Virus record (IMG/VR): IMGVR_UViG_2541047691_000017
Length of the DNA stretch: 40,851 nt
From: a virus
Taxonomy: Duplodnaviria > Heunggongvirae > Uroviricota > Caudoviricetes
Direction: 5' to 3' (one strand)
The notes under the pieces were generated by a model, which was not told the DNA's origin, ran no database searches, and was given only the letters and a program-made list of their open reading frames with translations. Of the stretch, positions 1-26,377 are shown piece by piece (within the stretch, counting starts at the first letter, position 1; each line of letters starts with the position of its first letter). Both the position numbers and the translations under genes were made by a program.

Positions 1-516
1 ATGAAATTTAAAAAATGTCTTCTGCCTGTGGCAATGTTAGCGTCATTCACTCTGGCAGGATGCCAGTCAAATGCTGATGATCATGCCGCCGATGTTTATC
101 AAACCGATCAACTGAATACCAAACAAGAAACTAAAACCGTTAATATTATTTCCATTCTTCCCGCAAAAGTTGCCGTAGACAACGCCCAAAATAAACGGAA
201 CGCACAAGCCTTCGGCGCGCTTATTGGCGCTGTCGCTGGCGGTGTTATCGGCCACAACGTCGGGTCTGGCAGCAATTCCGGAACGACGGCAGGTGCAGTT
301 GGCGGCGGAGCTGTAGGCGCGGCAGCGGGTTCTATGGTGAATGATAAAACCTTAGTGGAAGGTGTTTCTTTAACATATAAGGAAGGCACCAAAGTGTATA
401 CCTCCACCCAGGTGGGTAAAGAGTGCCAGTTTACGACAGGTTTAGCCGTTGTTATTACCACGACGTATAACGAAACGCGTATTCAGCCAAATACCAAATG
501 TCCTGAAAAGAGCTAA
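1..516 (+). CDS. Outer-membrane lipoprotein with glycine-zipper region (SlyB/YcfJ-like), probably host
   Basis: ATG at window position 1; signal peptide with lipobox LAGC; Gly/Ala-rich zipper (GALIGAVAGGVIGHNVGSG...); stop at 514-516. Family assignment from memory. Confidence 0.55.
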   Translation: MKFKKCLLPVAMLASFTLAGCQSNADDHAADVYQTDQLNTKQETKTVNIISILPAKVAVDNAQNKRNAQAFGALIGAVAGGVIGHNVGSGSNSGTTAGAVGGGAVGAAAGSMVNDKTLVEGVSLTYKEGTKVYTSTQVGKECQFTTGLAVVITTTYNETRIQPNTKCPEKS

Positions 517-531
517 TAATCAGGAGGAGTC

Positions 532-1071
532 ATGAAGAAAGTTTTTCTTTGCGCCATCTTAGCCTCCTTAAGCTATCCGGCTATCGCCTCATCATTGCAG
601 GATCAACTCTCGGCTGTCGCAGAAGCGGAACAGCAAGGTAAAAATGAAGAGCAAAGGCAGCATGACGAATGGGTCGCGGAGCGCAACAGGGAAATCCAGC
701 AAGAGAAGCAACGTCGCGCAAACGCCCAGGCCGCGGCTAATAAAAGAGCGGCAACGGCAGCAGCGAATAAGAAAGCTCGTCAGGATAAACTGGACGCCGA
801 AGCCACTGCGGACAAAAAACGCGATCAAAGTTATGAAGATGAGCTACGTAGCTTAGAGATTCAGAAACAAAAACTGGCGCTGGCGAAAGAAGAAGCCCGC
901 GTCAAGCGCGAAAACGAATTTATCGATCAGGAACTGAAGCACAAAGCTGCGCAAACCGATGTGGTGCAATCTGAAGCTGACGCAAACAGAAATATGACTG
1001 AAGGCGGTCGCGATCTGATGAAAAGCGTGGGTAAAGCAGAAGAGAATAAATCAGATAGCTGGTTTAACTAA
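532..1071 (+). CDS. Secreted, charged coiled-coil protein of unknown function, probably host
   Basis: RBS AGGAGG upstream of ATG 532; N-terminal signal peptide (ends AIASS); Lys/Glu/Ala/Gln-rich body; 179 aa. Confidence 0.45.
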   Translation: MKKVFLCAILASLSYPAIASSLQDQLSAVAEAEQQGKNEEQRQHDEWVAERNREIQQEKQRRANAQAAANKRAATAAANKKARQDKLDAEATADKKRDQSYEDELRSLEIQKQKLALAKEEARVKRENEFIDQELKHKAAQTDVVQSEADANRNMTEGGRDLMKSVGKAEENKSDSWFN

Positions 1072-1110
1072 ACGATGTTAGTAACTTCAAACCTATAATT
1101 CTTTAGGATA

Positions 1111-1141
1111 AAAAAACCCTCTGTAGTAACAGAGGGTTTTG
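1111..1141. terminator. Bidirectional rho-independent terminator between the host genes and the prophage lysis cassette
   Basis: A6 run, 7-bp perfect stem CCCTCTG/CAGAGGG with 6-nt loop, then TTTT; can terminate the plus-strand gene ending 1071 and the minus-strand Rz gene ending 1290. Confidence 0.6.
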
Positions 1142-1289
1142 TTCATTCATAGTGCAGGGTCAAATCATTTCCACTCAATTATTTACGACAACCATAACCA
1201 ATTGAGTGATAACATTTTTCCAAATCTCAATTTTTCCCGTACCGTTTTATATACCGTCACCGGAAATCAGTACCATGAAAAATGCCATG

Positions 1290-1772
1290 CTATCTGGTCA
1301 AAGTGTCGTACTGTTTTTCGCAGACTCTTCCGGCTTCGGCTGCCCGGTCAGCATACTCTGCCAGTTGTCTGTTTCTCTCGAGAGATTTGCTGAGCACGTC
1401 GGCAAGCAAAACTCCGGTGTCTGCGGCTGACGACCCAGCGCCGACAATGGCGTTATACTGCCTGAGCTGCTCACGGATGGCAAAGAGTTGTTGCTGCAAC
1501 CGGCCAGCGCTAGCGGCAGCATCAAGAGCATCATTGCGCGCCTGGTCGATCCTCTGCTGAGCTTCACGTTCATTGGTCACTTTCTCCTGTTCGTAGTACT
1601 GACGAACTTTGTCTTCTTCGGCTTTGCTGTCTTCTTCCGCCTGAGCATACCCGGCATCGTACTGGCGACTGCCGTGTATATTCCAGGCAACCACTCCTGA
1701 TATGACCAGAACAGCAAGCACTGCCACGATAAGAAACTGTTTCCAGTATGCTTTTACGAATGCCCAGATCAT
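1290..1772 (-). CDS. Rz: Rz-like i-spanin
   Basis: 160 aa; N-terminal transmembrane helix then coiled-coil periplasmic domain; directly downstream of the endolysin with an ATGA stop/start overlap at 1769-1772. Confidence 0.7.
1298..1534 (-). CDS. Rz1: Rz1-like o-spanin embedded in Rz in another frame
   Basis: ORF lies inside the Rz gene; encodes a signal peptide with lipobox LALAGC followed by a Ser/Pro-containing short mature peptide. Start chosen at the MMLLML methionines; exact start uncertain. Confidence 0.6.
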   Translation of the reverse strand: MMLLMLPLALAGCSNNSLPSVSSSGSITPLSALGRQPQTPEFCLPTCSANLSRETDNWQSMLTGQPKPEESAKNSTTL

Positions 1773-2398
1773 ACCGCCAGCACCTTACTGGCAGTGATGT
1801 ACCGCGCTCGCCGGTCGTCGATGCCGTTCCGGCCACCATTGATAATCAGAGTTACACGTGCAATATCGCCGGTATACTTCATGCATCCTTTGCTGGCGAA
1901 GAACCACGCCGCGCTACGAGCCGCATATTCGTCCTGCGCCAGCAGTTCAGGGCTCTCCAGCAGGTCAACCTTCAGACCGTTTCCGCAATCACGATAGTTA
2001 TTCAAACCGGTAATCTGGATAAGTCCGCGCCCTCGGTAATTCCAGCCATCACCAGGGGCATTGTTCCCCATGCGTTTGCTGTATACCAGATTTGCGATCG
2101 CGCGCTGGCGCTCAAGTGGCAATGGTGGTTCACCAGCACGGCGCCCCAGTGCATTAGCCTGCCCCTGAGTGAGACGCCCAGCCCGAACGAAGTTAGCCAG
2201 TCCGCTGACACTGTAGTTGAAATTCTCCTGCAACCTGGTGAAGCCCCCAGACTCATGCCCGACTTGAGCAATAAACATTGCCTGATCTTCTGCTTTGCTG
2301 ATACCAAACTCTTTCATCGCAGAAGTTATATGCGAGAACCAGCGTGCGGCCAGTGCCTCGCTGATACCAGCAGCTCGCTGGAATTGTTTAATCTCCAT
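1769..2398 (-). CDS. Endolysin, glycoside hydrolase family 19 (chitinase-like) type
   Basis: Start placed at internal ATG (MEIKQFQ..., codon 2396-2398) rather than the upstream read-through; motifs [12 protein letters not shown] and GRGLIQITG... resemble GH19 phage endolysins (from memory); sits in the lysis cassette. Confidence 0.8.
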
Positions 2399-2696
2399 GT
2401 TTAGACCTCGATACTTTAAAAATTTGAACGACGTTACCGCGCGTTTTAATAACCGCAGCCAGCATGACAGCGTTGATAATGACCTCAGATAAATCCACAG
2501 CCATTGGCGTACGTAACCAGATTGCATAGGCGACTCGAACAGGAATACTGGCCGCAGCAACAATCAGGAAATAAGCAAGCCATCCTCCCCACCTTCGATG
2601 TTGAGAGCCGTTACGCCGGAATGTGACAACGCGAATTGCTATGCCAGTGCAAATAACTGCATTAGTGATAAGCAAAAAAAACTCATGCGTTACCAT
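2388..2696 (-). CDS. Holin-like small membrane protein (second of pair)
   Basis: 102 aa with 2-3 hydrophobic helices; immediately upstream of the endolysin; overlaps the preceding membrane-protein gene by 14 nt. Confidence 0.5.
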
Positions 2697-3087
2697 CGTC
2701 TTTTCTCCCCGGAATTAACTCGCGTGGATTATCGGAACGGTGATAGAGCCATATACCAATACGCACAGCGACAATTGCTGACACGAATGCGCCTGCAGAG
2801 AAAACAATCCCTTTTTCAAAAGAGTCCTGCGTGATGGTAGGGATCAGGCTGGCTATGCCGATAAGAATTGATGCTGCTGGTTTGTAAAAGAGAAGGCCGC
2901 AAAGAAAGCTGAGCATCGACAGGAGCACCCGGCGACGGATGGGGTACTCTACTGCAGAGGTAACAAAAATTACCGCCCCAGCCAAAGCCCCTAAAGCAAC
3001 CTCCGGAGGGACACCTGCAATAACTGCAGCAAGAGAACCAAAACTAAGCAACTGATTTAATTGCTCACTTGTTACTTGAGCAGACAT
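2683..3087 (-). CDS. Holin-like membrane protein (first of pair)
   Basis: 134 aa, several hydrophobic helices; RBS AGGAG before ATG at 3085-3087; first gene of the lysis cassette. Confidence 0.5.
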   Translation of the reverse strand: MSAQVTSEQLNQLLSFGSLAAVIAGVPPEVALGALAGAVIFVTSAVEYPIRRRVLLSMLSFLCGLLFYKPAASILIGIASLIPTITQDSFEKGIVFSAGAFVSAIVAVRIGIWLYHRSDNPRELIPGRKDDGNA

Positions 3088-3367
3088 ACTTTCTCCTGTT
3101 TACTATCTATAAGCCAGTCAATTATTGATGACTAAACCCGCATAGTAAACCATATATGAATCATTATTGTTCCATATCATATATCTCAATAAAAGTACTA
3201 ATGATTTTACAGAACGAGCCAGCAGAGTGGGGGCAGTTGTACAGGAACCATAGACTTAATTTTGTATTTAATAATGCTATGGTGTAATAAACCTGAACAT
3301 GTATTTAAAATACGTACTGATTCATGATAGAATTCAAAGATAACTTTTCACCAACCCGTTTTTGATA

Positions 3368-3394
3368 CCCGCAATATTTTGCGGGCTTTTTTTT
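3368..3394 (+). terminator. Plus-strand intrinsic terminator abutting the tailspike stop codon
   Basis: Stem CCCGCAA/TTGCGGG, loop TATT, then T8; the U-tract is on the plus strand only, so it is not a canonical terminator for the minus-strand tailspike. Confidence 0.4.
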
Positions 3395-6300
3395 AACGTT
3401 CTTCCAGAGACTGAACCCGCTCTTTTATCTTATCCATTTCTCTGCGCTGCCATGCTGCCTCGATATAGAATAAGAGATCAGGTCTGACCCCCCATCTAGA
3501 TCCTGCTGGCGTTATTTCAACGCGCTCAATGATGTCTTCTATTACCATCACTGGATTATCATCCTCATCAACAATGATGCTCCCGTCATTATCAGTCAGC
3601 GGCATTTCCCTTTGGCCAGTAATGACGTCATCATATACTGCGGGATAATCGTCATAGCAAAGAAAGGCATAGCGGCATGTTGTGCTTTCTTCTTCCATGA
3701 GTCCGTGAGAAATAAGAACATCACGAAGTTGCTGCGCGATTACACCATGATGTATCCTCGCCCCTTCTTCCCCCTTTATAGCGACAGCGTTCAGCCATTT
3801 ATAAGCGATATACCTGACGTCACCCCAGGCATCCAGCAATGCTTCGTCAGGAGAGACCGGCTCTGTCTTTAATGTTCCGTCACTGGTAACCACAGGATTG
3901 GAGCCAAGATAAACTGTCGAGAACCTGTTTCCCGGACCACCAAGAGCATTTACATTATCAAGATAAGGTTTAACATCTCCGTTCTCAAAAAGATGTTCGA
4001 GTGCGTTATATACCGCGCGACGTGGAGTACTGCTTCCGGAACCATGCAACGTTATCATTGCACCATCTGCTGAAGACGTTGTTTCACCGCCGCTAACGAT
4101 TAATCTCTGAGCGGTAACATCATCAGACGGTACTTTCTTCGCAATAATGGCGTAATTACCCTCAAGTTTGACTTCCGCGCGAACTTGTCCTGATGTACCT
4201 GCATGGACAGTCAGTGACTGGACGGCAACATCATCTGTGAAATCAACGGGTACAGGAACCGTCCTCACGCCTGACGTCGACATAAAAGTAGGAAGCGTTC
4301 TGTTAGGAGTGGCTCCGTAGACAAAATCCCTTGAAACAAATTCTTCCTGTTTAATTTTCACCCTGAAACAATACAAATCAGCCGGGTGACCATCGTGAAC
4401 ATAAGGATATTTTCTGTTGTTATCCCCTATGCTCCATGGGTTTAGAAAGTCTTCCCCACCGAAAATGTAGTACAGCCAGTTGTCTTTGATACAAACTGAA
4501 CCAACACCAACCGCAGAGTTAACTATTCCGCCCTGATAAATCTGATCAGTAACATTAACCCACTCTACATTATCCAGACTCCACTCATTGACGTTAACTC
4601 TGGTCATAAATGTTCTTGGATAATTTCCTGCATAACGGTTATCAGGTTCTCCTCCTTCCCACTCACCAAATGCGCGCTCACTGCCAAAAATAATCAGCTC
4701 ATCGCCAACTTTGGCAAAAGGAAGGTTTGAGTGATGAACATTATTTGGGAAGCGAAGAGAATTCCATGATGTACCTAAATCAGAGCTTCTGTGCAATGAA
4801 CTACCGGGTTGAGTACTTAATGTCCCCCTGGTCGTCAGATACAGAATGCCATCATAATATTTTACACATGGCTCAGATGCATTCGCCTCATATTCTGCAG
4901 GTATGCGTCTGCGAACAAAGCTACCAGGAGAACCGAAAGCATCAGAGAAATAGAGTATCCCAAGCTCGCGTGGACCAATATCACCATTATGGTAGCCAAC
5001 AGCAAAACTGTTATCGCTAATCGTCGCAAAACTGTGAATCTCAGTAACAGGAGTGCTTCCGTCAACAAAAGAAGGAATAGTTCCAAGACTGGTTTTTCTC
5101 CATGGTGACGAGTGAAATGATGTACCAAAACTCCAGTATCTACCCTCGTTATTCTGATCCACATCCTGGGTATTTTGCGTCGTAACTGTAAAAGTATTTT
5201 TATCAATAACAGTAGTCACCGTCATATTCCCGGTAACACCTGTAACACCAGAGTTTGAGAAGTTGACAAAATCACCAGCAAATAATCCGTGATCAGTAAT
5301 GCGAATATAAGCGACTTGCTGATTTGCTGCTTTCGTTATACCACCATAAACGCGAAGGCTGCGACTCATTGGGCGATCCCACAACTCTGCAACCTGCAGT
5401 TTATTTCCGCTCACGGTCCGCGTCTCAATTACAGCAAAAAGGCGATTTCTGACAACCCCCATACTCATGCAGTGATAGTTAACTGTGGGATAGTTTTCAT
5501 GTAAATCTGTAAGCCATTCCGGCGTTGTCCAGGTCTTCCCGTCATCTCCTGAGCGAACCCATGCAACATGGAGGTTATTTACACCATGGCGGTCTCCAGC
5601 CATAAAAGGCGCATAGATGACATTGTCATATACAAACGTTTTATCCTGCGTCCAGGCGTTGTACCACGGTGTATCTGTAATTTTAAATAACTCTCCCTGG
5701 ATAAAATCTTCAGAAGCATAAAAAAGAGGCTGGCCCGGTATTCTCTCAAATAAAAAACGAGCATTTTTAAATCGACTGACATCCGGAAGAGTTGATACTT
5801 TAAAAGTAAGCCCTAATCCGTCAATTTTATAACCTGGAGATGAGGCTTCAAGGCACGCGCTTATTGCAGTGGAATCGTCATTTATACCATCACCAACAGC
5901 TCCAAAATCTTTGGGGCTAATAGCATCACGCATTTTATCCTGGAACGTTCGGTACACAGCCCCAGAACCATACTGAATAAACCAACCAAAACCACCAACA
6001 ACCCCGGAGATTGCAGCATCGACATAATTACGCATTGAGCGATTATTTACAGCGTCCTGCTCAAATGATGGATCTGCAAGGTTAGAAATTTTGTTTTGCT
6101 TTGCATCGTAATATTTTGCAAGCAAAGATGGTTTCATCAATGCACGTCTGAACCACCCAAAACATTGCTGGATCAGCATCGTCAGGTAGTCAAAGGCATC
6201 TTCATGCACTTCGGGGAAAAATTTTCCCTGATTGCGAAGGTCTGTCTCCTGCACTACATCAAGCACACGATCTATCGTAATTCGCCATCCAGTAGCAAGC

Positions 6301-6512
6301 GGAGACGGAAGAACCACAGAACCGCCACTATAAGTGCCCGCCCCAGTTACCGTATAACCGGTATCCAGAACCAATTCTGTTACGTTTCCGTTCAGGTCAG
6401 ACACCTGAACAACCAGGTCTGATTTTCTGAAAACTCGAAAAGTATACGGAAACGATGTCGTAACGCCGTTACCGGTGTATTCGTTGTGGTCAACTTCGGT
6501 TGAGACCGTCAT
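3393..6512 (-). CDS. Tailspike/tail fiber: T7 gp17-like N-terminal adaptor, central domain with two Asp-box motifs, C-terminal intramolecular-chaperone (peptidase S74-like) domain
   Basis: 1039 aa. N-terminus (NEYTGNGVTTSFPYTFRVF...VVQV...LVLDTGYTV) fits the T7-type tail fiber adaptor pattern. Asp boxes SGDDGKTW (5529..5552) and SSDLGTSW (4764..4787) checked against the DNA. C-terminal roughly 160 aa resemble the autocleaving chaperone of endosialidase-type tailspikes, candidate cleavage near VVTS/DGTLK. All from memory. Confidence 0.85.
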   Translation of the reverse strand: MTVSTEVDHNEYTGNGVTTSFPYTFRVFRKSDLVVQVSDLNGNVTELVLDTGYTVTGAGTYSGGSVVLPSPLATGWRITIDRVLDVVQETDLRNQGKFFPEVHEDAFDYLTMLIQQCFGWFRRALMKPSLLAKYYDAKQNKISNLADPSFEQDAVNNRSMRNYVDAAISGVVGGFGWFIQYGSGAVYRTFQDKMRDAISPKDFGAVGDGINDDSTAISACLEASSPGYKIDGLGLTFKVSTLPDVSRFKNARFLFERIPGQPLFYASEDFIQGELFKITDTPWYNAWTQDKTFVYDNVIYAPFMAGDRHGVNNLHVAWVRSGDDGKTWTTPEWLTDLHENYPTVNYHCMSMGVVRNRLFAVIETRTVSGNKLQVAELWDRPMSRSLRVYGGITKAANQQVAYIRITDHGLFAGDFVNFSNSGVTGVTGNMTVTTVIDKNTFTVTTQNTQDVDQNNEGRYWSFGTSFHSSPWRKTSLGTIPSFVDGSTPVTEIHSFATISDNSFAVGYHNGDIGPRELGILYFSDAFGSPGSFVRRRIPAEYEANASEPCVKYYDGILYLTTRGTLSTQPGSSLHRSSDLGTSWNSLRFPNNVHHSNLPFAKVGDELIIFGSERAFGEWEGGEPDNRYAGNYPRTFMTRVNVNEWSLDNVEWVNVTDQIYQGGIVNSAVGVGSVCIKDNWLYYIFGGEDFLNPWSIGDNNRKYPYVHDGHPADLYCFRVKIKQEEFVSRDFVYGATPNRTLPTFMSTSGVRTVPVPVDFTDDVAVQSLTVHAGTSGQVRAEVKLEGNYAIIAKKVPSDDVTAQRLIVSGGETTSSADGAMITLHGSGSSTPRRAVYNALEHLFENGDVKPYLDNVNALGGPGNRFSTVYLGSNPVVTSDGTLKTEPVSPDEALLDAWGDVRYIAYKWLNAVAIKGEEGARIHHGVIAQQLRDVLISHGLMEEESTTCRYAFLCYDDYPAVYDDVITGQREMPLTDNDGSIIVDEDDNPVMVIEDIIERVEITPAGSRWGVRPDLLFYIEAAWQRREMDKIKERVQSLEER

Positions 6513-6616
6513 GTTAAATCTCCAGATAGTCGCAGCACCCGTTGCGCCGCATATCTGGTTATTCTATTACCTGGAAAACCACATATGGATAGAAAGGCTG
6601 TAAATACGAATAGATA

Positions 6617-6631
6617 TTACCTTTCAGGTAA
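6617..6631. promoter_or_regulatory. Operator-like palindrome TTACC-TTTCA-GGTAA
   Basis: Exact TTACC-N5-GGTAA; upstream of the LexA box and the 6708 gene. Confidence 0.6.
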
Positions 6632-6668
6632 TTTGCAAAACGTGCTGGATAGCAAACAAATTATTTGC

Positions 6669-6688
6669 TACTGTATAAATATACAGTT
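6669..6688. promoter_or_regulatory. LexA box (SOS box)
   Basis: TACTGTATAAATATACAGTT matches the CTGT-N8-ACAG consensus (TACTGTATATATATACAGTA) at 18 of 20 positions; lies 20 nt upstream of ATG 6708. Confidence 0.75.
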
Positions 6689-6707
6689 ATTGCATGGAGA
6701 AGATAAG

Positions 6708-6965
6708 ATGCAGCAGTATCACTATCCACTGGAAGACGGATTTACCGAAAGGATTCACACGCCGGGAGGCGTCAGGTCACTGGTGGAGGGATCGCACTTG
6801 ATGAAATTACTCCGGGATCTCGATAAGGATGGATTTAATGTCGATGGCCCACTTGCCGAACTGACTGCACTGATTAACTACGTCACCAGCTCACAGATGT
6901 CTATGCAGGATCTGCAAACACATCTCGACTATTGTGCCGAACAATTACGAAAACAAACCAGATAA
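6708..6965 (+). CDS. Small antirepressor-like protein, standalone paralog of the antirepressor C-terminal domain
   Basis: 85 aa from ATG 6708 (MQQYHYP...). Aligns by eye with the C-terminus of the 7283..7933 product (IHTPGGV..SHLMKLL..DG.NVDGPLAELT..Y...DLQTH vs IHSPSGV..SLLMNLL..DGHDVSGAAAELT..Y...DIQTH). The longer listed ORF start at 6585 would place the LexA box inside the coding region. Confidence 0.6.
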   Translation: MQQYHYPLEDGFTERIHTPGGVRSLVEGSHLMKLLRDLDKDGFNVDGPLAELTALINYVTSSQMSMQDLQTHLDYCAEQLRKQTR

Positions 6966-6996
6966 GATTTGAAATTACCAAGTGGAGTGCTTATGT

Positions 6997-7011
6997 TTAC
7001 CTTTGAGGTAA
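6997..7011. promoter_or_regulatory. Operator-like palindrome TTACC-TTTGA-GGTAA
   Basis: Exact TTACC-N5-GGTAA between the 6708 gene and the antirepressor gene. Confidence 0.55.
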
Positions 7012-7101
7012 ATTTACATCGCACTCCTCTTGTGCCATAGTAATCGGGCACTGGCAAAATCCAGTGCCGGGATTGGTCTCCCGGATTACTAAGTGGCGCA
7101 T

Positions 7102-7124
7102 ACCACGCCAGACGTGGTTTTTTT
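7102..7124 (+). terminator. Weak intrinsic terminator
   Basis: Stem ACCACG/CGTGGT around a 5-nt loop followed by T7; downstream of the 6708..6965 gene. Confidence 0.3.
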
Positions 7125-7282
7125 ATGCGTATAGCACAGTCATGCCAGAATTATGGTGGGCTGAATGGGGGTCCGAAAGGACGCCGGTACCACTTAGGCC
7201 GGTAAGACCAACTCCGTTCAGTTCACCACCATCTGATTGGTCTCAGCGGTGGTGATGTAATTCGCTAAGTGGAGACGCCATA

Positions 7283-7933
7283 ATGAACGCTCAACTCATC
7301 CCCGTATTCAACGGCACTATATCCAACGAAACCGCTCTTCTCGTTAATGCCCGTGATTTACACACTTTCCTCGATGTGGGTAAGCGATTTGCTTCGTGGA
7401 TTGTCGAACGAATTTCTGAATATGGTTTCGTTGAAAATCAAGACTTTATGATTATTTCCCAAGTTCGGGAAAAAATAGGCAGAGGCCGTCCTGCAAAAGA
7501 CTACCACCTCACCCTCGATACAGCCAAAGAGCTGGCGATGGTCGAGCGTAACGAAAAAGGTCGTCAGGTACGACGCTACTTCATTGAATGCGAGAAACGT
7601 TTAAGACAACAAGAAACAAAAGTGGAGAAGGTCTTGTCAGGCTTCATGCCCGCCATTATGGAGGCGATCAAGCTGGAAGACAAAAAAGAATACAGTGCCC
7701 CACTGAAGCCCGGCTACCGTAGCCTGATTCATTCGCCGTCTGGTGTTCTCGGCCTGACGGAGAACTCACTGCTGATGAATCTGCTGAACCAGTTACAGGA
7801 CGACGGGCACGACGTATCGGGCGCGGCGGCGGAGCTGACCACCATGTTCTGCTACATCGTCGGTGTGAGCAAATGCCTGCGTGATATCCAGACCCACGCG
7901 GAGTACATCAACGACAAGGCAGGGTTCTTCTGA
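7283..7933 (+). CDS. Phage antirepressor (AntA/AntB-type N-terminal domain plus C-terminal domain)
   Basis: 216 aa; N-terminus (ARDLHTFLDVGKRFASWIVERISEYGFVENQDFMI) fits the AntA/AntB antirepressor domain pattern from memory; RBS GGAG before ATG. Confidence 0.7.
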   Translation: MNAQLIPVFNGTISNETALLVNARDLHTFLDVGKRFASWIVERISEYGFVENQDFMIISQVREKIGRGRPAKDYHLTLDTAKELAMVERNEKGRQVRRYFIECEKRLRQQETKVEKVLSGFMPAIMEAIKLEDKKEYSAPLKPGYRSLIHSPSGVLGLTENSLLMNLLNQLQDDGHDVSGAAAELTTMFCYIVGVSKCLRDIQTHAEYINDKAGFF

Positions 7934-7999
7934 CGGGCGGCGGCACAGGGATGTGCTTCTGACATAATCATTTGCGGTGTGATGTAGATTCACGTAAGA

Positions 8000-8014
8000 T
8001 TACCTTAAAGGTAA
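8000..8014. promoter_or_regulatory. Operator-like palindrome TTACC-TTAAA-GGTAA upstream of the 8041 cassette
   Basis: Exact TTACC-N5-GGTAA, 26 nt upstream of ATG 8041 and before its AGGAGG RBS. Confidence 0.55.
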
Positions 8015-8040
8015 ACCATGGGTTTACATGAGGAGGAGAT

Positions 8041-8250
8041 ATGGGATTTTGGTTCGCTCGTACAAAAACGAGGGATAATGCACCCAGCCCTCAGGCAAAA
8101 AATGCAGAAGTTCCGGCGTCAGCGCAGGTTAACAAGCGTGGTGGAGTATATATCTCATCACAGCAAATTTCTGAGCTTCCTGAGGTTAAGGAGATGCGTC
8201 GTCTCGCTGCTGCAATTGTTAAACAGGATCTTGCCACTGTAAGGAAATAG
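8041..8250 (+). CDS. Small hydrophilic protein of unknown function, first gene of accessory cassette
   Basis: 69 aa; strong RBS (AGGAGG) before ATG 8041; stop TAG overlaps the GTG start of the next gene (TAGTG). Confidence 0.55.
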   Translation: MGFWFARTKTRDNAPSPQAKNAEVPASAQVNKRGGVYISSQQISELPEVKEMRRLAAAIVKQDLATVRK

Positions 8251-9116
8251 TGTTGTTAGCTCTTCTAATTATCCCCATTCTGGTTAGTGGTTATATTATG
8301 ATAACCGCTAACCAGTATCATTATTTCCGTTTATACCGACATGAAGGCCAGCTTCTTTATATGAAAGTAGCTGCATTAGGTACATATTGCCTTGTTGCAT
8401 CAGTAATAATTGCAGCCGCTATAAAATATAAATGGCCTGATTTTCACCTAGTTCACGATATGGTGGAAACTTTTAATGTAACATCAAAACCAGAAACAGA
8501 TAGAATTTACATGTGGCTGCTTCTTCTCTCAGCCACATCCATTTGCTTCTCTTTGTGTTATGTGTCTGTTGTGTGGGTGAAAGATTTTCTTCTTGGTTGT
8601 TTTTATAAACGTGATATTTACGAGCAAAAAACAGAGGCAATGAAGGCCAGAGTACTGCGAAAAACTTACTCGCAAGGTTCTTTAGACTTACTATTGCTTG
8701 ATGCTATTGAATCGGATCCTAAACGACCAATGTTGATTACTTTATCATCAAACAAAGTGTATGTTGGAATAATAAATGGTTCTGGTGAACCAACGGAAAA
8801 TCAGGGTCCGCATCAGCACATATCTTTTGTTCCTTTAATGTCAGGATACAGGAACAAAGAAAACTTATCTGTCACATTCACTAATGCTTATCCAGGAGAA
8901 ATACAGGTCAAGCGGACTGCAGCAATAAGAGGAATTAGCAGAAAGAAAGTGCTAGGACTTGAGATCATGGTGTCTATTGACGAAATAAGTTATATATCAT
9001 GGTTTGATTTTGAAGTATATAAAGCAACAAATAACAAAGTAGAATCCAGGGGGCACGTTATTCGTGTTACCAAAAATGGAAGAAATATATATCAAAGAAA
9101 TAGCAAAAAAGAATAG
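8250..9116 (+). CDS. Membrane-anchored protein of unknown function (three predicted N-terminal TM helices, about 170-aa soluble C-terminal domain)
   Basis: 288 aa; GTG start with AAGGA RBS 5-6 nt upstream, translationally coupled to 8041..8250; markedly AT-rich relative to neighbours; followed by a strong terminator. Confidence 0.6.
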   Translation: MLLALLIIPILVSGYIMITANQYHYFRLYRHEGQLLYMKVAALGTYCLVASVIIAAAIKYKWPDFHLVHDMVETFNVTSKPETDRIYMWLLLLSATSICFSLCYVSVVWVKDFLLGCFYKRDIYEQKTEAMKARVLRKTYSQGSLDLLLLDAIESDPKRPMLITLSSNKVYVGIINGSGEPTENQGPHQHISFVPLMSGYRNKENLSVTFTNAYPGEIQVKRTAAIRGISRKKVLGLEIMVSIDEISYISWFDFEVYKATNNKVESRGHVIRVTKNGRNIYQRNSKKE

Positions 9117-9136
9117 CCCGCGCTGCGGGCTTTTTT
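9116..9136 (+). terminator. Strong rho-independent terminator after the accessory cassette
   Basis: Stem GCCCGC/GCGGGC with 3-nt loop, then T6, immediately after stop codon 9114-9116. Confidence 0.75.
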
Positions 9137-9208
9137 GTGGACGAAACAAAAGTCAGTGCTACACTCATTGACGCCACATTGAGGTGGCTTATAGATGGAA
9201 ATGTCACA

Positions 9209-9370
9209 ATGAAAAAAGCATTTGCTGCACTGTTCGTTTTGTTGTCTCTGGTAGCTTCAACTCAGGCCTTTGCCGGTCGTTGTCAGCACGACAGCGACAC
9301 TGCTGCTGACGGCTCACGCTGCGGTGGGCGTTCTGCGGATTCCCGCCCAGGCGGCGGTGGCATTCGTTAA
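9209..9370 (+). CDS. Small secreted Cys-containing protein (53 aa)
   Basis: ATG 9209 gives MKKAFAALFVLLSLVASTQAFA signal peptide then a Gly/Ser/Asp-rich 31-aa mature peptide with Cys residues; the longer six-frame ORF start at 9137 lacks support. Confidence 0.4.
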   Translation: MKKAFAALFVLLSLVASTQAFAGRCQHDSDTAADGSRCGGRSADSRPGGGGIR

Positions 9371-9393
9371 AAACAAGGCCGCGAAAGCGGCCT

Positions 9394-9405
9394 GTGACAT
9401 GTCAC
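9394..9405. repeat. Palindrome GTGACATGTCAC, copy 1 of 3
   Basis: Perfect 12-bp palindrome; its TCA is the stop codon (reverse strand TGA) of the 9402..9698 gene; preceded by hairpin GGCCGC-GAAA-GCGGCC. Confidence 0.7.
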
Positions 9406-9698
9406 GTCCCTTTTCTGAATGATAGCCATTCGAAAAATGATGACATTCCACCGCAGACAATAGCAAAGATGATCCCACCAAAGAAGAGAAGGCCAGCCTG
9501 CCACCACTCCCACCGCCATACATCCACAGCGCCAACCATACCAACAATCGCTCCAACAAATGGAATATAGCTCACGATGAAAGCAATGGGGGCTGCAATT
9601 ATCCAGTGCAATCCCCACCATGATTCAAGCCCAGCCATAATTGCTGCCAACTGAAAAAGACCAACGACGATATAAACAATGAATCCTATAGCTTGCAT
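9402..9698 (-). CDS. Small inner-membrane protein (3 TM helices), unknown function
   Basis: Start at ATG 9696-9698 with RBS AGGTGA; about 98 aa, almost entirely hydrophobic helices; convergent with the 9209 gene. Confidence 0.5.
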   Translation of the reverse strand: MQAIGFIVYIVVGLFQLAAIMAGLESWWGLHWIIAAPIAFIVSYIPFVGAIVGMVGAVDVWRWEWWQAGLLFFGGIIFAIVCGGMSSFFEWLSFRKGT

Positions 9699-9894
9699 GT
9701 AGTCACCTAATTTACCCAGTAAAAATAAGAGGCCTCCCCTCAATAAGGCTTGCAACAAGAACTACTCCCTGCACAACAAAGATGAACCAGCAAATAGCTT
9801 GAGTCTGAGGGTTAAGAAAATATTTGTAGCGGTCAATAAATAACAATCCACCAGAAATTATCACACTCAAAATAATTAAAAACACAACACTTCC

Positions 9895-12369: not shown

Positions 12370-12374
12370 TTAAT

Positions 12375-16687: not shown

Positions 16688-17232
16688 TATAATCCTCCGG
16701 GTAATCTGGTTCCTGCTGCTGCCCCGATTGGCGCAGGGGTGCTTTGAGTAAACGGACTCCACGTCCCACCAAACATCTGGTACGCACCGTATGCCTTCAG
16801 AGGCGCAGTGAGCAATGTTGTTGCTGCTCCCACATTCCCCTGTTTACGGGCTGAACTGGCTTCTGCTTTATAGTTGGCAGCCTGAACCTGATAACCGTAA
16901 GCCTCGCGTTGCGCGTTATTCACCGTCGTCAGAGAATCAAGAGCGCCAAACTGGGCAGTGTCGCCAAATATATCCAGCGCGTTACCTGTAGATAAATCAG
17001 CGCCGGTAGCCCCCATTGTCGCCGCCTGTGTACCAAGCCGCTGTCGGGTCTCTCTGCGCCGTTGCTCAGCTTCAGCGTTACCTCTGTTTATTGCATCATT
17101 TGCCTGAGCTGTGGCTATATCTGCGTTCGCTTCTGCAACCTTCGAGGCATACTTTCCCTGTTGGTACTGGGTGTATGCCTGAATGCCACTCATGGCGAGC
17201 ATTGCGCCACCAGCAATAACCGGATCGCACAT
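16687..17232 (-). CDS. Small internal virion protein (gp14-like position)
   Basis: 181 aa, Ala/Gln-rich; lies between the tail tubular B gene region and the large internal proteins. Confidence 0.45.
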   Translation of the reverse strand: MCDPVIAGGAMLAMSGIQAYTQYQQGKYASKVAEANADIATAQANDAINRGNAEAEQRRRETRQRLGTQAATMGATGADLSTGNALDIFGDTAQFGALDSLTTVNNAQREAYGYQVQAANYKAEASSARKQGNVGAATTLLTAPLKAYGAYQMFGGTWSPFTQSTPAPIGAAAGTRLPGGL

Positions 17233-17696
17233 TATTTTCTCTCCATGTGAAATCTGTGGAAATTAAGACCAAGAGCACCATAAGGCGCGGCTTCTTCAAG
17301 CCTGAATCCAAGCCAGTGCAGCCATGCTTTGGCAACATGGTTTCGCTCGTCGACATAGTTTTCCAGGCGCGGATAAACTGCCAGCATCTGCTGCAATACA
17401 GGGCGGCAGTGGCGAAGAAATGTCTTCTGATATTTTTCGATACGGCTGGTTCCGACCAGCCAGGGCGTACCATTGCCACCGATCATTGACGCCGGAGATA
17501 CGCCAAACATGGTTACCAGTTCTCCGTTCGCAAATCCTGACCAGGCCATAGTCGCAGTACGCAGACCAACACGCAGCGCATCTTCGGTAGTCATCAGTGA
17601 TACCGCATACAGTTCGTCAATATCAGCCTGACGAACATCCGGCAAAATCATCTGAAGATGCTCTTCGGTTGCGGGAATAACTTGAACATCGATCAT
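17232..17696 (-). CDS. Virion-associated protein of unknown function
   Basis: 154 aa; start/stop overlaps with neighbours indicate translational coupling inside the structural operon. Confidence 0.4.
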   Translation of the reverse strand: MIDVQVIPATEEHLQMILPDVRQADIDELYAVSLMTTEDALRVGLRTATMAWSGFANGELVTMFGVSPASMIGGNGTPWLVGTSRIEKYQKTFLRHCRPVLQQMLAVYPRLENYVDERNHVAKAWLHWLGFRLEEAAPYGALGLNFHRFHMERK

Positions 17697-20167
17697 CAGA
17701 ATCCCCCAACAGTAAGGCGAGGAATAACGGCAAGAACAGACAGCGGCAACGGATCAAGCTGACGGATTTTTACACGTCCGTTTTTGCCCCAGTTACTGTC
17801 CAGTTTCACTTCTACTTTTCCGGTAGCATCATCAACAGGATCATCGTAGAACTCGAATTCACGCTGTGGATATTCGTACCATTTACCGCCGGGCGTAGTC
17901 GCCCAGATGCCGCGACTGGCATTCACAACCAGAGTAACGGAGGGGATCACCTGTTTTTTGTCCAGCAGCGTTTCCTGTCCGTTAATGTTGATATCCAGTG
18001 TTTCGAATTCAGCAGTTATTGGCATGCCGATGTGCACTACAGCCCCCGGAGATTCCAGCGTGACGGCACCTCCGGAAACCACTTTCTGTGGTTCCACGTT
18101 CGCATCAGAGAGAATGTTTACGGTCTGGCCTTCAAGATGAGACAGGCCTCCAAATGTCCGGCGCGCCATCTGCCAGTTCGTGGTGGCCACATTCCTGAGG
18201 GATGGCGGGACGTTCCTGTTAGCACGAACCACTACAGCGGTATTGCTGGTTACAGAAATAATGTCGCAACGTAATTCTTTTGACACTTCATCGCCAGTAT
18301 CAGGATCAGTTCCGGTATAAGGGAACTGTAGTTGCGCGCCGACATCACTACTGGTGAAGTACGCACCACCAGAAACACTGATTGTATATTCCGCACGGTA
18401 ATCCCATTCACCAGAACCACCAGTGATGGTCATCGTTCTGTCAGACGTATTTCTTCCATCATAGCTAAGGCCAGAATCAACAAAGAAAGCATCTTCATCG
18501 CTGGTAAATAAACGGCTGGACAGTCGCTCGATGTATCTCACTGTTTGCCCGTTAACGGTTCGGTTAATGACGAAATACACCGCATCTTCATTGCCTTCGC
18601 TGATACTGCATGTGCTTTCATATTTTCCGGTACTGGACTGTGGTGCCCATGCAAAAACCTGTTGATCACGCAAATAGGTCATCACCAGTAATTTACCGTC
18701 ATCACGAATGCAGAAGGCGCTGGAGTAAGGGACAATAGAGAAGCACCAGTCAACAATGCTGTGCTTCTGAAAAAGATGATTGGCAAGGATAGTAAGGTCG
18801 TTCCCCTGATAGCCGTCAACATCGAATGAGTAGGCCAGATCACGGACAACACTGCCTTTCTCCTGGACGAACAGAGCAATATTCGCCACGGCAATTGGTG
18901 GGACATTGCTCGAACCATTTGATCCCTGAGAGCTGAATGCAAATGATGATGGAGTTAATACTTTGTTCTGGTCGCCGGTGATGACGTACTCACCTCCGGA
19001 AGTCAGTGCCACCAGCGAACCGACATCAATCAGGTGGCGGATCTCATTAACCTGACGCCCGGCATAGGTGTAGATAATTCTGTCGTCATCCTGCGTAGGA
19101 TTGCTTTTGCCAAAATCCTTATAATCCCCAGTACGGCTGGCCCAGATAGTCTGAGGGAACGCTGTCGATGCGGCGAAGTAAAGACGTTGTTGATAATAAA
19201 CAACCGTGCCAGGATAACCGTTAACACTGTTCCAGGCATATTTAGCCCATTTATAGCTGGCATTATCCTCGCCAACGACCTGCGAAGGGATATAGGAAAT
19301 CACCTCAGCAGTTGCAGTAGTGCCATTTACAGCAGTTATACGGGCAATGCCAAAACCACTGTGCAGATACTCCCACTCAATGCCAGTATCATCATCACCG
19401 GATCCGCCCCAGCCATCCCATGATGTGCCTTCTGTATGCGAAGGGCGCAAAGTGCCTGTTTTGCCTGCTGTAACGGCGCGATAGTAGTTACTGTCTGCAC
19501 GGCGAATATCGCCAATCGACGTACTCTTACTGGTTTCCCATACCGGCACAGAATCCACTGCAGGCTGTTCCAGATAGAACAATTTGCCTACCTGCTCCGC
19601 GCCAAAAATAGAGGCGCTTGCCGTTAACGTAATTGTCCCGGTGCTGGCGCTGGCATAAACCGTCACTGACTCATCAATATTGATATCTTCAAATGGCCCG
19701 TTCTTCGTTACCACATCAACCAGTTGCCAGTTGTCATGCGCATAGCGGCGCAGCTCTTTCGGCGGGTATGCCGGGTGAACCAGCGTAAGCACGTCGGCGC
19801 TTTGCGTGAATTTAATTCGGAACAGATCGGCTTCAGTATATGGCGTGGCAATTTCATAAATAACATTGCTGCTGTTCAGCACCAACGCACCATCTTTGAT
19901 AACGCGCATGTACTGGTGTCCGAACTCCAGAGCATAAGTCTGAACCGTCGAGAATTGGAACGGGATCAGGCGGCATTTCCGATTTGGGTATTTGGCGGCA
20001 CCGACAAAACGCGTACCAGGTCGATTCTCAACGCCGCCATACTGCCGCACGATAAAGTTATCGCACTTGCGCAATGCTACCTGGTACTTCGCCATGTCAA
20101 TACGCCCGTACAACGACGGTCCAATCTCACCACCGGCAAAGCTGGGCTGGATCCAACTGATAGCCAT
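17696..20167 (-). CDS. Tail tubular protein B (T7 gp12-like)
   Basis: 823 aa; N-terminus MAISWIQPSFAGGEIGPSLYGR resembles the start of T7-type gp12 as recalled (MALISQSIKNLKGGISQQPDILR); size and position match. Confidence 0.65.
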   Translation of the reverse strand: MAISWIQPSFAGGEIGPSLYGRIDMAKYQVALRKCDNFIVRQYGGVENRPGTRFVGAAKYPNRKCRLIPFQFSTVQTYALEFGHQYMRVIKDGALVLNSSNVIYEIATPYTEADLFRIKFTQSADVLTLVHPAYPPKELRRYAHDNWQLVDVVTKNGPFEDINIDESVTVYASASTGTITLTASASIFGAEQVGKLFYLEQPAVDSVPVWETSKSTSIGDIRRADSNYYRAVTAGKTGTLRPSHTEGTSWDGWGGSGDDDTGIEWEYLHSGFGIARITAVNGTTATAEVISYIPSQVVGEDNASYKWAKYAWNSVNGYPGTVVYYQQRLYFAASTAFPQTIWASRTGDYKDFGKSNPTQDDDRIIYTYAGRQVNEIRHLIDVGSLVALTSGGEYVITGDQNKVLTPSSFAFSSQGSNGSSNVPPIAVANIALFVQEKGSVVRDLAYSFDVDGYQGNDLTILANHLFQKHSIVDWCFSIVPYSSAFCIRDDGKLLVMTYLRDQQVFAWAPQSSTGKYESTCSISEGNEDAVYFVINRTVNGQTVRYIERLSSRLFTSDEDAFFVDSGLSYDGRNTSDRTMTITGGSGEWDYRAEYTISVSGGAYFTSSDVGAQLQFPYTGTDPDTGDEVSKELRCDIISVTSNTAVVVRANRNVPPSLRNVATTNWQMARRTFGGLSHLEGQTVNILSDANVEPQKVVSGGAVTLESPGAVVHIGMPITAEFETLDININGQETLLDKKQVIPSVTLVVNASRGIWATTPGGKWYEYPQREFEFYDDPVDDATGKVEVKLDSNWGKNGRVKIRQLDPLPLSVLAVIPRLTVGGF

Positions 20168-20775
20168 CAGGACAACCTCGCAATGGTAAACTCATCAACC
20201 GGTGGCTGTGGTTCCTGTGATTCATTCTGGCTATGCGAGCCAGCACTAAGAATCACGCGATTGTACATATTGAGGGCAAACGTACCGAGGTCTGCATTCC
20301 CAGTCAGCGCCATGTTAATAGCTGCCGCAAGACGCCAGGCCAACGCCTCCATAAAAATGGCATCAAACATGTTCACATCTGTAACGCGAGAGACATACTT
20401 GAGCCATGCCTGAGGCTGGTCTGTGTAGATCAACTTTCCTGTTCCGTTGGTGTCTGCACCAACTTCGTACTGAACGCGCATTGCTGCTGTTGGATTGCGT
20501 ACACCAGGAAGCATAATTTCAGTAATGCGCAGACAATCTGACGGGTACTGGTACGCATATTCCCAGTCAGGCGGTGGATTGCTCGTATCTGCAAGCGCCA
20601 CGCGTTTGGTAGCAAAGTTCCAGTCAAAATCAGAAAGCACAGCATCACGACAGGCCTCAAAGTGCAGCGAACATTCCCCCGCTTCCTTGCTGGCTTCCGT
20701 CAGGCTGTTAATGCTGCGGCTGTTGCCAATATTGGACAGCGCACGATTACAGATCTCTACTACAGAGGCCATCAC
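20167..20775 (-). CDS. Tail tubular protein A (T7 gp11-like)
   Basis: 202 aa; N-terminal region (EICNRALSNIGNSRSINSLTE) resembles recalled T7 gp11 (VNDILASIGEPPVSTLE); immediately upstream of the gp12-like gene. Confidence 0.6.
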   Translation of the reverse strand: MMASVVEICNRALSNIGNSRSINSLTEASKEAGECSLHFEACRDAVLSDFDWNFATKRVALADTSNPPPDWEYAYQYPSDCLRITEIMLPGVRNPTAAMRVQYEVGADTNGTGKLIYTDQPQAWLKYVSRVTDVNMFDAIFMEALAWRLAAAINMALTGNADLGTFALNMYNRVILSAGSHSQNESQEPQPPVDEFTIARLS

Positions 20776-26300: not shown

Positions 26301-26377
26301 GTGGCATTAGCTCAGTTGGACAGAGCAACCGCCTTCTAAGCGGTTGGTCGCAGGTTCGAATCCTGCATGCCACGCCA
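26301..26377 (+). tRNA. tRNA-Arg (anticodon UCU), argU-like
   Basis: 77 nt folded by hand: 7-bp acceptor stem GTGGCAT/ATGCCAC, D-arm GCTC/GAGC, anticodon stem ACCGC/GCGGT with loop CTTCTAA (anticodon TCT), T-arm GCAGG-TTCGAAT-CCTGC, encoded CCA. Confidence 0.9.

Follow-up and report, generated by a model that had tools for sequence, protein, structure and literature searches.

The closest described counterpart of the tailspike considered here is the ORF7 product of the temperate phage vB_EcoP_ZX5 (MW722083), which is classified as a Uetakevirus. The accessible part of the ZX5 report (Li et al. 2022; PMC9782041) states a three-domain architecture for ORF7, as in the tailspike here, labels its N-terminus as a member of the T7 gp17 family, gives the host as O87:H52:K1, and describes a phage that both plaques and lysogenises; the same part annotates domains without a test of K1 dependence, enzymology, residue analysis or mosaic mapping. 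A second counterpart is SiaK1 of CUS-3 (CP000711), a P22-like Lederbergvirus that, like the present prophage, is temperate and has K1 hosts, and in whose GenBank record endo-alpha-sialidase activity is backed by direct-assay (IDA) evidence (PMID 16689790). The structural reference is endoNF (gp17) of K1F, a lytic T7-like phage (PDB 1v0e, 3gvl, 3gw6), the N-terminus of which is a true T7 gp17-family domain. Lastly, the closest solved relative of the virion-binding N-terminus comes from the marine podophage Carin-1 (Dpo36/Dpo31; 8ck1, 28lx; fibre chain 8ck1_B), where D1 of Dpo31 is a beta-sandwich located at the virion base, a coiled coil comes next, and the C-terminal D4 is released; the catalytic domain there has a different depolymerase fold, not that of an endosialidase.

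An intact tailspike gene in a Uetakevirus prophage

The window, i.e. the whole stretch of viral DNA that was analysed (40,851 nucleotides; IMG/VR record IMGVR_UViG_2541047691_000017), contains the following gene.

3393..6512, minus strand: complete tailspike gene from the ORF listing (ATG start, 1039 amino acids plus stop codon)

The 1039-residue tailspike proposed by an earlier, sequence-only reading of this DNA was thus borne out as an intact reading frame. The gene is 100% identical at the nucleotide level to locus APECO18_RS08325 of APEC O18, annotated as 'endosialidase catalytic beta-propeller domain-containing protein', and the identical chromosomal gene (100%) is found in the K1 strains APEC O18 and IHE3034. 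About 72 complete genomes have the gene at full length. Identity to ORF7 of ZX5 is 99.8% over the whole gene, the seven nucleotide differences translating to five amino acid differences, none of which is at a catalytic residue. With a near-identical gene published in ZX5, the type of tailspike is already known.

The prophage and ZX5 have in common a Uetakevirus backbone, the downstream lysis genes and the guaA attachment core; at 1163-1179 the window has the ZX5 att core, and the integrase lies on the guaA side. The two differ in the moron and ejection-protein regions (7000-17200), which are rearranged. Identity of the whole prophage with that of APEC O18 was considered and rejected, as collinearity is limited to 2-6974 and to blocks beyond 17228. 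Since the window shows no capsule genes, the K1 status of the host is inferred from the identical genes in known K1 strains. The preferred reading, with a probability of about 0.93, is of a tailspike that both binds and destroys its receptor, belonging to a temperate podophage of the epsilon15-like group (Uetakevirus) that resides as a prophage in K1-capsulated E. coli, integrated at the guaA 3' end.

Endosialidase catalytic region

The features of the catalytic region and stalk are as follows.

4350..5699, minus strand: six-bladed catalytic beta-propeller, aa 272-721 (Pfam End_beta_propel, E 1.4e-233)
5118-5366, minus strand: beta-barrel inserted in the propeller, aa 383-465 (Pfam End_beta_barrel, E 3e-46)
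3885..4349, minus strand: stalk domain, aa 722-876 (Pfam End_tail_spike, E 8e-78; aligned to endoNF)
5529-5552 and 4764-4787, minus strand: Asp boxes SGDDGKTW (aa 321) and SSDLGTSW (aa 576), from the translation
5586-5588, 4872-4874, 4827-4829 and 4674-4676, minus strand: active-site codons H309, E547, R562 and R613, mapped onto endoNF H350, E581, R596 and R647

All four endosialidase Pfam domains were found within aa 205-876. The End_beta_propel match spans profile positions 1-367 of 367, whilst End_N_terminal (E 6e-32), End_beta_barrel and End_tail_spike were each matched over the full profile, and the endoNF structures 1v0e and 3gvl match aa 205-876 with E=0; an NCBIfam profile search gave no meaningful match. 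With E-values of the domain matches running from 1e-10 down to 0, the features are not a chance pattern. By its domain content, the tailspike is a full-length GH58-type endosialidase. The domain order is that of endoNF, to which the propeller is 70%, the stalk 56% and the chaperone domain 54% identical.

The likeness to endoNF extends to individual residues. Both Asp boxes that had been picked out from the letters are present, they are the only two matches to the pattern S-x-D-x-G-x-x-W in the whole protein, and they align with the corresponding boxes of endoNF. His350 of endoNF, which we take to be an active-site residue, has its conserved counterpart in H309. Among the stalk residues presumed to bind polysialic acid, the tailspike keeps R803 and S814 but has Met819 in place of endoNF Q853, a methionine that is also found in CUS-3. 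The residues Glu581, Arg596 and Arg647, named as the active-site triad of endoNF (PMC2955717), are all retained as E547, R562 and R613.

Comparison with CUS-3 SiaK1 revealed 99.0% identity over aa 234-1029, with eight amino acid differences across the propeller, barrel, stalk and chaperone regions. On the strength of this identity and of the K1 host of ZX5, the tailspike is predicted to have endosialidase activity on polysialic acid; homology to endoNF points the same way. A shift in specificity, in which plain alpha-2,8 polysialic acid would have given way as substrate to, say, the alternating alpha-2,8/2,9 polymer of K92 type or to the O-acetylated form alone, could be read into the methionine at the Q853 stalk position and into the genes that follow the tailspike: CUS-3 has neuO at this point whereas the window prophage has holin genes, and a blastn search downstream of the tailspike gene for neuO, a neuO-type acetyltransferase or its heptanucleotide repeats found none, so that the relation to capsule acetylation may differ from that in CUS-3. 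Yet the characterised K1 endosialidase of CUS-3, 99% identical in the catalytic and stalk regions, carries the same methionine, the accessible account of ZX5 has it isolated on a K1 strain, and the classic K1 strains IHE3034 and APEC O18 hold the identical gene, and a shifted specificity is accordingly considered extremely improbable.

The GH58-type domains, the conserved active site, the identity to CUS-3 and the K1 host of ZX5 together lend support to the earlier suggestion of an endosialidase-like, capsule-degrading receptor-binding protein, possibly specific for polysialic acid. That suggestion had also described the combination of domains as one known from lytic K1-specific phages. The combination is real but is not confined to lytic phages, and its occurrence in a temperate setting is not new, because the temperate phages CUS-3 (P22-like) and ZX5 (Uetakevirus) have both been published.

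C-terminal chaperone domain

3396..3884, minus strand: C-terminal intramolecular chaperone/peptidase S74 domain, aa 877-1039 (Pfam Peptidase_S74; 3gw6)
3882-3884 and 3867-3869, minus strand: codons of Ser877, before which cleavage is predicted, and of its partner Lys882 (endoNF alignment)

A self-cleaving, chaperone-like C-terminus had been proposed for the protein, and this assignment was upheld by profile and structure matches alike, with the Ser/Lys processing pair conserved. The Pfam Peptidase_S74 match lies at aa 877-937 (E 1.8e-10), and the solved endoNF chaperone domain 3gw6 matches aa 870-1038, i.e. 169 residues that take in the whole C-terminus, with E 1e-51 (E 2e-93 in a separate comparison). 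Ser877 and Lys882 align with Ser911 and Lys916 of endoNF, the lysine lying five residues downstream of the serine in each; Lys916 presumably has a role in endoNF processing, following the MEROPS description of family S74. In the 3gw6 structure Ser911 is replaced by alanine, as would fit a mutant that does not cleave itself, whereas the tailspike keeps the serine. By homology to endoNF and CUS-3 SiaK1, the tailspike would assemble into a homotrimer, its folding guided by the C-terminal chaperone domain, which is then predicted to cut itself off by Ser877/Lys882 autoproteolysis, with release at Ser877.

The state of these residues also bears on whether the gene is instead a decaying remnant in a cryptic prophage, endosialidase-like but non-functional. 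Such decay would fit with the presence of two frameshifted or partial genes elsewhere in the APEC O18 version of the prophage, and with the rearrangement relative to ZX5 at 7000-17200. Against this, the 1039-codon frame is uninterrupted, the catalytic and processing residues are all conserved, and the protein is five residues from that of a phage reported, in the accessible part of its description, to plaque and lysogenise. Additionally, the gene is found untruncated and at full length on 21 IMG/VR contigs, with 4-37 nucleotide differences. Decay of the gene is therefore judged very unlikely.

N-terminal adaptor and its predicted docking partners

5925..6512, minus strand: N-terminal virion-binding adaptor, aa 1-196 (identity to epsilon15-group N-termini; 8ck1/28lx match)
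6258-6488, minus strand: adaptor beta-sandwich D1, aa ~9-85 (AlphaFold model)
20167-20775, minus strand: tail connector/adaptor protein, 202 aa (8ck1_E 'Connector Protein', E 4e-26; PHROG tail protein family)
17696-20167, minus strand: tail nozzle, 823 aa (8ck1_A 'Tail Nozzle', E 2e-217; PHROG tail protein family)

The adaptor is 96% identical at the amino acid level to the N-terminus of the EC.W1-9 tailspike, and its residues 1-166 are 63-71% identical to those of Salmonella E15-like phages, SPN1S and O157 typing phage 10. The Carin-1 proteins (8ck1/28lx) match with E 1e-35. The AlphaFold model of the N-terminus has a mean pLDDT of 63 and is confident only at aa 9-85 (pLDDT 85-91), a region that corresponds to D1; the helices that follow probably form a trimeric coiled coil. 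When this model was used in a Foldseek search, chain 8ck1_B was recovered with E 8e-12 and 47% identity, and all 18 matches at E<=1e-3 were chains from podophage tail, nozzle or fibre assemblies. These included the T7 gp17 N-terminal chains 7boz, 7ey9 and 7ey7, and also 8dsp, with E-values of 1e-4 to 1e-3 (7boz_a, 1e-4).

The sequence-only reading had described this region as T7 gp17-like, and the possibility that it is a genuine member of the gp17 family, attaching the spike exactly as in K1F, was weighed on these and further comparisons. The Foldseek matches to gp17 N-terminal chains (E 1e-4, probability 1.0) speak for it, as do an hhalign alignment to T7 gp17 that is collinear (aa 12-163 against gp17 residues 11-157), albeit with E 0.008 and a probability of 5%, and the T7 order of the tail genes, in which a T7 gp14-family protein lies immediately downstream of the connector and nozzle genes. 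Conversely, Pfam Phage_T7_tail (PF03906) scores 15.7 bits, below its gathering threshold of 25.2 (E 0.013); the adaptor and the K1F gp17 N-terminus are ~20% identical and give no significant local alignment; none of the 133 tblastn matches of the N-terminus is to a T7-like phage; and the sequence relatives are instead epsilon15, phiV10, SPN1S, BPP-1 and Carin-1. The sub-threshold Pfam score, the low K1F identity and the epsilon15-group relatives therefore place the adaptor in the T7 gp17 fold class but in a different family, and gp17-family membership in the strict sense appears unlikely. What stands of the gp17 proposal is a distant homology at the level of the fold, the adaptor being of the epsilon15/Carin-1 type.

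An adaptor of a Uetakevirus tailspike also agrees with its surroundings, in that epsilon15-group similarity at the N-terminus goes together with a Uetakevirus backbone and guaA integration. A T7-like fold, seen in a model that is confident only at aa 9-85, is likewise accompanied by homologues of the nozzle and connector, for which Carin-1 entry 8ck1 also holds counterparts. The connector and nozzle (17696..20775) are thus the predicted docking partners of the adaptor, and the trimer would dock onto the connector-nozzle junction through aa 1-196, with their beta-sandwich and coiled coil. Because the N-terminal model is confident only at aa 9-85, this putative docking geometry rests on homology to the Carin-1 tail in 8ck1.

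Mosaic structure of the gene and relation to CUS-3

Mapping against CUS-3 and Uetakevirus tailspikes divides the gene and its 3' side as follows, below the adaptor.

5815..5924, minus strand: lineage-specific linker, aa ~197-233, the first part of the End_N_terminal domain (42% amino acid identity to CUS-3)
3422..5814, minus strand: tract near-identical to CUS-3 siaK1, gene nt 699-3091, aa 234-1030 (megablast, 99.5%)
3113..3421, minus strand: 3' flank peculiar to the lineage, made up of the intergenic region and the final ~30 nt of the gene (from blastn comparison with CUS-3, EC.W1-9 and ZX5)

The gene is a mosaic, in which the Uetakevirus adaptor is followed by a short linker peculiar to the lineage, then by a 2.39-kb tract essentially identical to the CUS-3 endosialidase gene, and lastly by a 3' end that is again lineage-specific. 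From the remainder of the End_N domain, the tract runs through the propeller and its barrel insertion and the stalk into the chaperone domain, of which it covers most. Outside it the proteins differ: the P22 gp9-type head-binding N-terminus of CUS-3 is unrelated to aa 1-195 of the tailspike, and there are further differences in the first ~38 residues that follow the adaptor and in the final 10. Identity of the linker reaches no more than 46% with other endosialidase loci and 55% with another Uetakevirus tailspike, and the linker is always joined to the Uetakevirus adaptor of this lineage. Below 3112, blastn homology to the Uetakevirus backbone resumes; in the phage collection the 3' flank occurs only in ZX5 and two Phi05 records. 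Neither the linker (aa 196-233) nor the 3' flank had a closer relative outside the lineage when its origin was sought in the same collection.

The Uetakevirus prophage and the CUS-3 prophage co-reside in the same genomes, their copies in APEC O18 lying ~167 kb apart. Against the CUS-3 copy in APEC O18, the tract has seven nucleotide differences, with none between gene nt 781 and 2972 (2,192 identical nt). Moreover, at all five SNPs that separate the APEC O18 CUS-3 copy from the CUS-3 copies of RS218 and IHE3034, the APEC O18 copy matches the Uetakevirus gene. A diverged fusion of Uetakevirus adaptor and endosialidase, which would be a sign of an older fusion overwritten by CUS-3 sequence, was sought in IMG/VR and not found, all 21 full-length copies being near-identical. 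We give even odds to the idea that the endosialidase module is actively exchanged between these unrelated prophages on one chromosome in K1 ExPEC lineages. Such an exchange would have one crossover within the End_N_terminal domain, at gene nt ~699-728, and another at ~3078-3091, where the final helix of the chaperone domain is encoded.

Significance

The gene is a marker of K1-capsule specificity in its prophage and thereby of a K1-type E. coli host with the potential to be neuroinvasive or avian-pathogenic. Endosialidases serve as polysialic-acid reagents and anti-capsule therapeutics, where this allele adds nothing beyond CUS-3 SiaK1. The addition to prior knowledge is the mosaic mapping, and the sole added value is evolutionary, namely that a depolymerase module is near 100% identical in two temperate podophage families on one chromosome. 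If exchange with CUS-3 is indeed the cause, the locus would represent a natural, datable swap of a receptor-binding module between podophage families inside a lysogen.

Domain content and functional residues

The tailspike is encoded by an intact single ORF of 1039 aa (window 3393..6512, minus strand), and it is unlikely that this represents a decayed gene. Five Pfam domains run end to end along the protein.

Pfam domains of the tailspike (aa coordinates; gene on the minus strand)
aa 205-271, End_N_terminal, E 6e-32
aa 272-721, End_beta_propel, E 1.4e-233
aa 383-465, End_beta_barrel (inserted), E 3e-46
aa 722-876, End_tail_spike, E 8e-78
aa 877-937, Peptidase_S74, E 1.8e-10

Among solved structures, the endosialidase of lytic phage K1F (endoNF; PDB 1v0e, 3gvl) matches aa 205-876 with E=0, and the crystal structure of its chaperone domain (3gw6) matches aa 757-1038 with E 2e-93; the propeller shares 70% identity with endoNF, the stalk 56% and the chaperone domain 54%. 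The two Asp boxes of the sequence-only reading were borne out by exact translation, SGDDGKTW at 5529-5552 and SSDLGTSW at 4764-4787. These are the only two matches to S-x-D-x-G-x-x-W in the whole tailspike, and both align with the corresponding boxes of endoNF. The endoNF active-site triad, Glu581/Arg596/Arg647 (PMC2955717), aligns with E547, R562 and R613, and a shifted substrate specificity appears unlikely. Ser911 of endoNF aligns with Ser877; the deposited 3gw6 chain has Ala in place of the processing serine, as a non-cleaving mutant should, and the tailspike retains Ser. Lys916, the partner of this serine in endoNF processing, corresponds to Lys882, and His350, a further active-site residue, to H309. 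Given these domain matches and conserved catalytic and processing residues, the protein has, at the level of sequence, every feature expected of a phage endosialidase whose C-terminal chaperone cleaves itself off, in support of the endosialidase-like and autochaperone-like interpretations made previously.

Affinity of the N-terminal adaptor

The N-terminus had been likened to T7 gp17, a T7-like label also used for ORF7, the tail fibre of temperate phage vB_EcoP_ZX5, in the ZX5 paper (PMC9782041). The AlphaFold model of the adaptor, built from 25 homologues, is confident only at a beta-sandwich at aa 9-85. Foldseek comparison of the model with the PDB returned 18 hits at E<=1e-3, all of them chains from podophage tail, nozzle or fibre assembly entries, headed by 8ck1_B of marine podophage Carin-1 (E 8e-12, 47% identity). 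The modelled sandwich is comparable to D1 of the Carin-1 tailspike Dpo31. In the published description this D1 (residues 8-87) is a beta-sandwich sitting at the base of the virion; a coiled coil comes next, and the C-terminal domain is released. Membership of the true T7 family would accord with the T7 gp17 chains among the Foldseek hits (7boz, 7ey9, 7ey7, 8dsp) and with a gp17 profile alignment that is collinear over aa 12-163 but weak (E 0.008, probability 5%); however, it is unlikely, since Pfam Phage_T7_tail scored 15.7 bits, under its 25.2 threshold, and none of 133 tblastn hits of aa 1-209 among 50,697 phage records was to a T7-like phage. Nor did the N-terminus align significantly in pairwise comparison with T7 or K1F gp17. 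The tblastn relatives were instead Salmonella E15-like phages, SPN1S, O157 typing phage 10 and TL-2011b, with BPP-1 and Pseudomonas, Xanthomonas and Pelagibacter podophages more distant. The T7 comparison therefore holds for fold class and distant homology but not for family: the adaptor is, as modelled, of the T7 gp17 fold class, and belongs to an epsilon15/Carin-1 family outside PF03906.

A prophage tail protein of 823 aa matches the 'Tail Nozzle' chain of 8ck1 (E 2e-217) and another, of 202 aa, its 'Connector Protein' chain (E 4e-26); their genes are followed by those for internal virion proteins, one a T7 gp14-family member. The adaptor probably docks at a place equivalent to that of T7 gp17.

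Published relatives and mosaic structure of the gene

The gene is 100% identical at the nucleotide level to one in APEC O18, named 'endosialidase catalytic beta-propeller domain-containing protein' in RefSeq; IHE3034 and further isolates, mostly from humans or birds, have an essentially identical copy. Matches covering at least 80% of it occur in 72 of 5,426 complete E. coli genomes. Identity to ORF7 of ZX5 (genus Uetakevirus) is 99.8% (7 nt and 5 aa differences, none catalytic). The ZX5 paper gives the host as O87:H52:K1 and the integration site as the guaA 3' end, and it divides ORF7 into three parts: an N-terminus like that of T7 tail fibres, a middle portion of endosialidase type and, at the C-terminus, an endosialidase chaperone (PMC9782041). 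A 2017 review presents CUS-3 (P22-type N-terminus) versus K1F (T7-type N-terminus) as the textbook case of endosialidase module exchange. The earlier finding is thus right but, given ORF7, the RefSeq annotation and this review, not new; its restriction of the architecture to lytic phages was wrong, as temperate ZX5 carries the same layout.

Segments of the tailspike gene (gene coordinates; gene on the minus strand)
nt 1 to ~585 (aa 1-195), adaptor, 95-100% identity per 60-nt window to the EC.W1-9 tailspike N-terminus
nt ~586-698 (aa 196-233), linker, no close match
nt 699-3091 (aa 234-1030), CUS-3-like tract, 99.5% identity to CUS-3 siaK1
last ~30 nt (aa 1030-1039) plus 280 nt intergenic, lineage-specific 3' segment, to window 3112 where backbone homology restarts

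In phage EC.W1-9 this N-terminus goes with a different catalytic domain. The linker is invariably joined to this adaptor; no other endosialidase locus exceeds 46% identity to it in the corresponding region, and another Uetakevirus tailspike reaches 55%. Within the phage collection searched, the 3' flank is confined to ZX5 and two Phi05 records. In IMG/VR the fusion forms one near-clonal lineage (21 full-length copies, 4-37 nt differences), with no diverged version. A 277-aa Kluyvera cryocrescens protein has the same adaptor (78% identity), an End_N_terminal-like start and an aberrant ending; it could be a related fusion, truncated or frameshifted, from another genus.

Possible exchange with CUS-3

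APEC O18, IHE3034, N1, N21 and N54 each carry both the Uetakevirus gene and a CUS-3-type tailspike accompanied by its Ant gene (100% match), the two lying ~167 kb apart in APEC O18 and IHE3034. Over the shared tract, the window gene shows 7 differences from the APEC O18 CUS-3 copy, none within gene nt 781-2972, and 12 from the RS218 and IHE3034 copies. All five SNPs separating the APEC O18 CUS-3 allele from that of RS218 match the Uetakevirus gene. This pattern fits a transfer that took place very recently, or conversion still going on, between prophages resident in the same genome, although five linked SNPs in one genome prove neither and give no direction.

The acyltransferase gene 3' of CUS-3 siaK1, at the neuO position of the CUS-3 record, is annotated at 777 nt in APEC O18 (753-1529 of the CUS-3 region) and 336 nt in IHE3034 (814-1149), which fits phase variation via the heptanucleotide repeat noted in that record. 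No equivalent follows the Uetakevirus tailspike.

Genomic context

The window starts in host genes yfgH and yfgI, followed by the att core of ZX5 with one mismatch (1163-1179), an Rz-like gene, a GH19 endolysin, two holins and the tailspike. Beyond lie a plus-strand moron/antirepressor block, T7-like tail and ejection genes, head genes, terminase, a lambda-like replication/immunity region and the integrase at the guaA end. A tRNA-Arg (anticodon TCT; 26301-26377, plus strand) is encoded within the prophage, with the portal region on one side and the terminase region on the other. Window 7000-17200, holding the moron block and, at 9895-16762, the large ejection-protein genes, is non-collinear with the APEC O18 and ZX5 prophages, in contrast to the 99.9% identical tailspike/lysis end, which makes the backbone of the prophage mosaic as well; the closest genome for this region is APEC BEN5202 (99.9% over 89%).

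Just past the tailspike stop codon (3393-3395) lies a perfect hairpin of terminator type, CCCGCAATATTTTGCGGG, with a run of eight T after it (3368-3385, plus strand). It is oriented antisense to the tailspike, on whose strand it reads as an A-run and hairpin without a U tract. Its effect would thus be to keep plus-strand transcripts from entering the gene antisense, not to end the tailspike transcript ahead of the holin genes. Divergent from the tailspike start, a small ORF (6585-6965, plus strand; called in RefSeq for APEC O18 as 6708-6965 only) is paralogous to the C-terminal region of the neighbouring AntA-type antirepressor ORF at 7283-7933 (plus strand; 44% identity over 78 aa, E 8e-16).

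Implications

Domain content, catalytic and processing residues, identities and mosaic junctions were computed here. By analogy with endoNF, CUS-3 and Carin-1, the chaperone domain would drive trimer folding and next be cleaved off before Ser877, aa 1-196 would fix the trimer at the connector-nozzle junction, and the propeller would cut alpha-2,8 polysialic acid, letting the phage through the K1 capsule. The earlier observation is confirmed, and its reading as a capsule-degrading receptor-binding protein is supported. The tailspike is an already published and RefSeq-annotated endosialidase, to which the possible exchange between prophages adds a modest side result.
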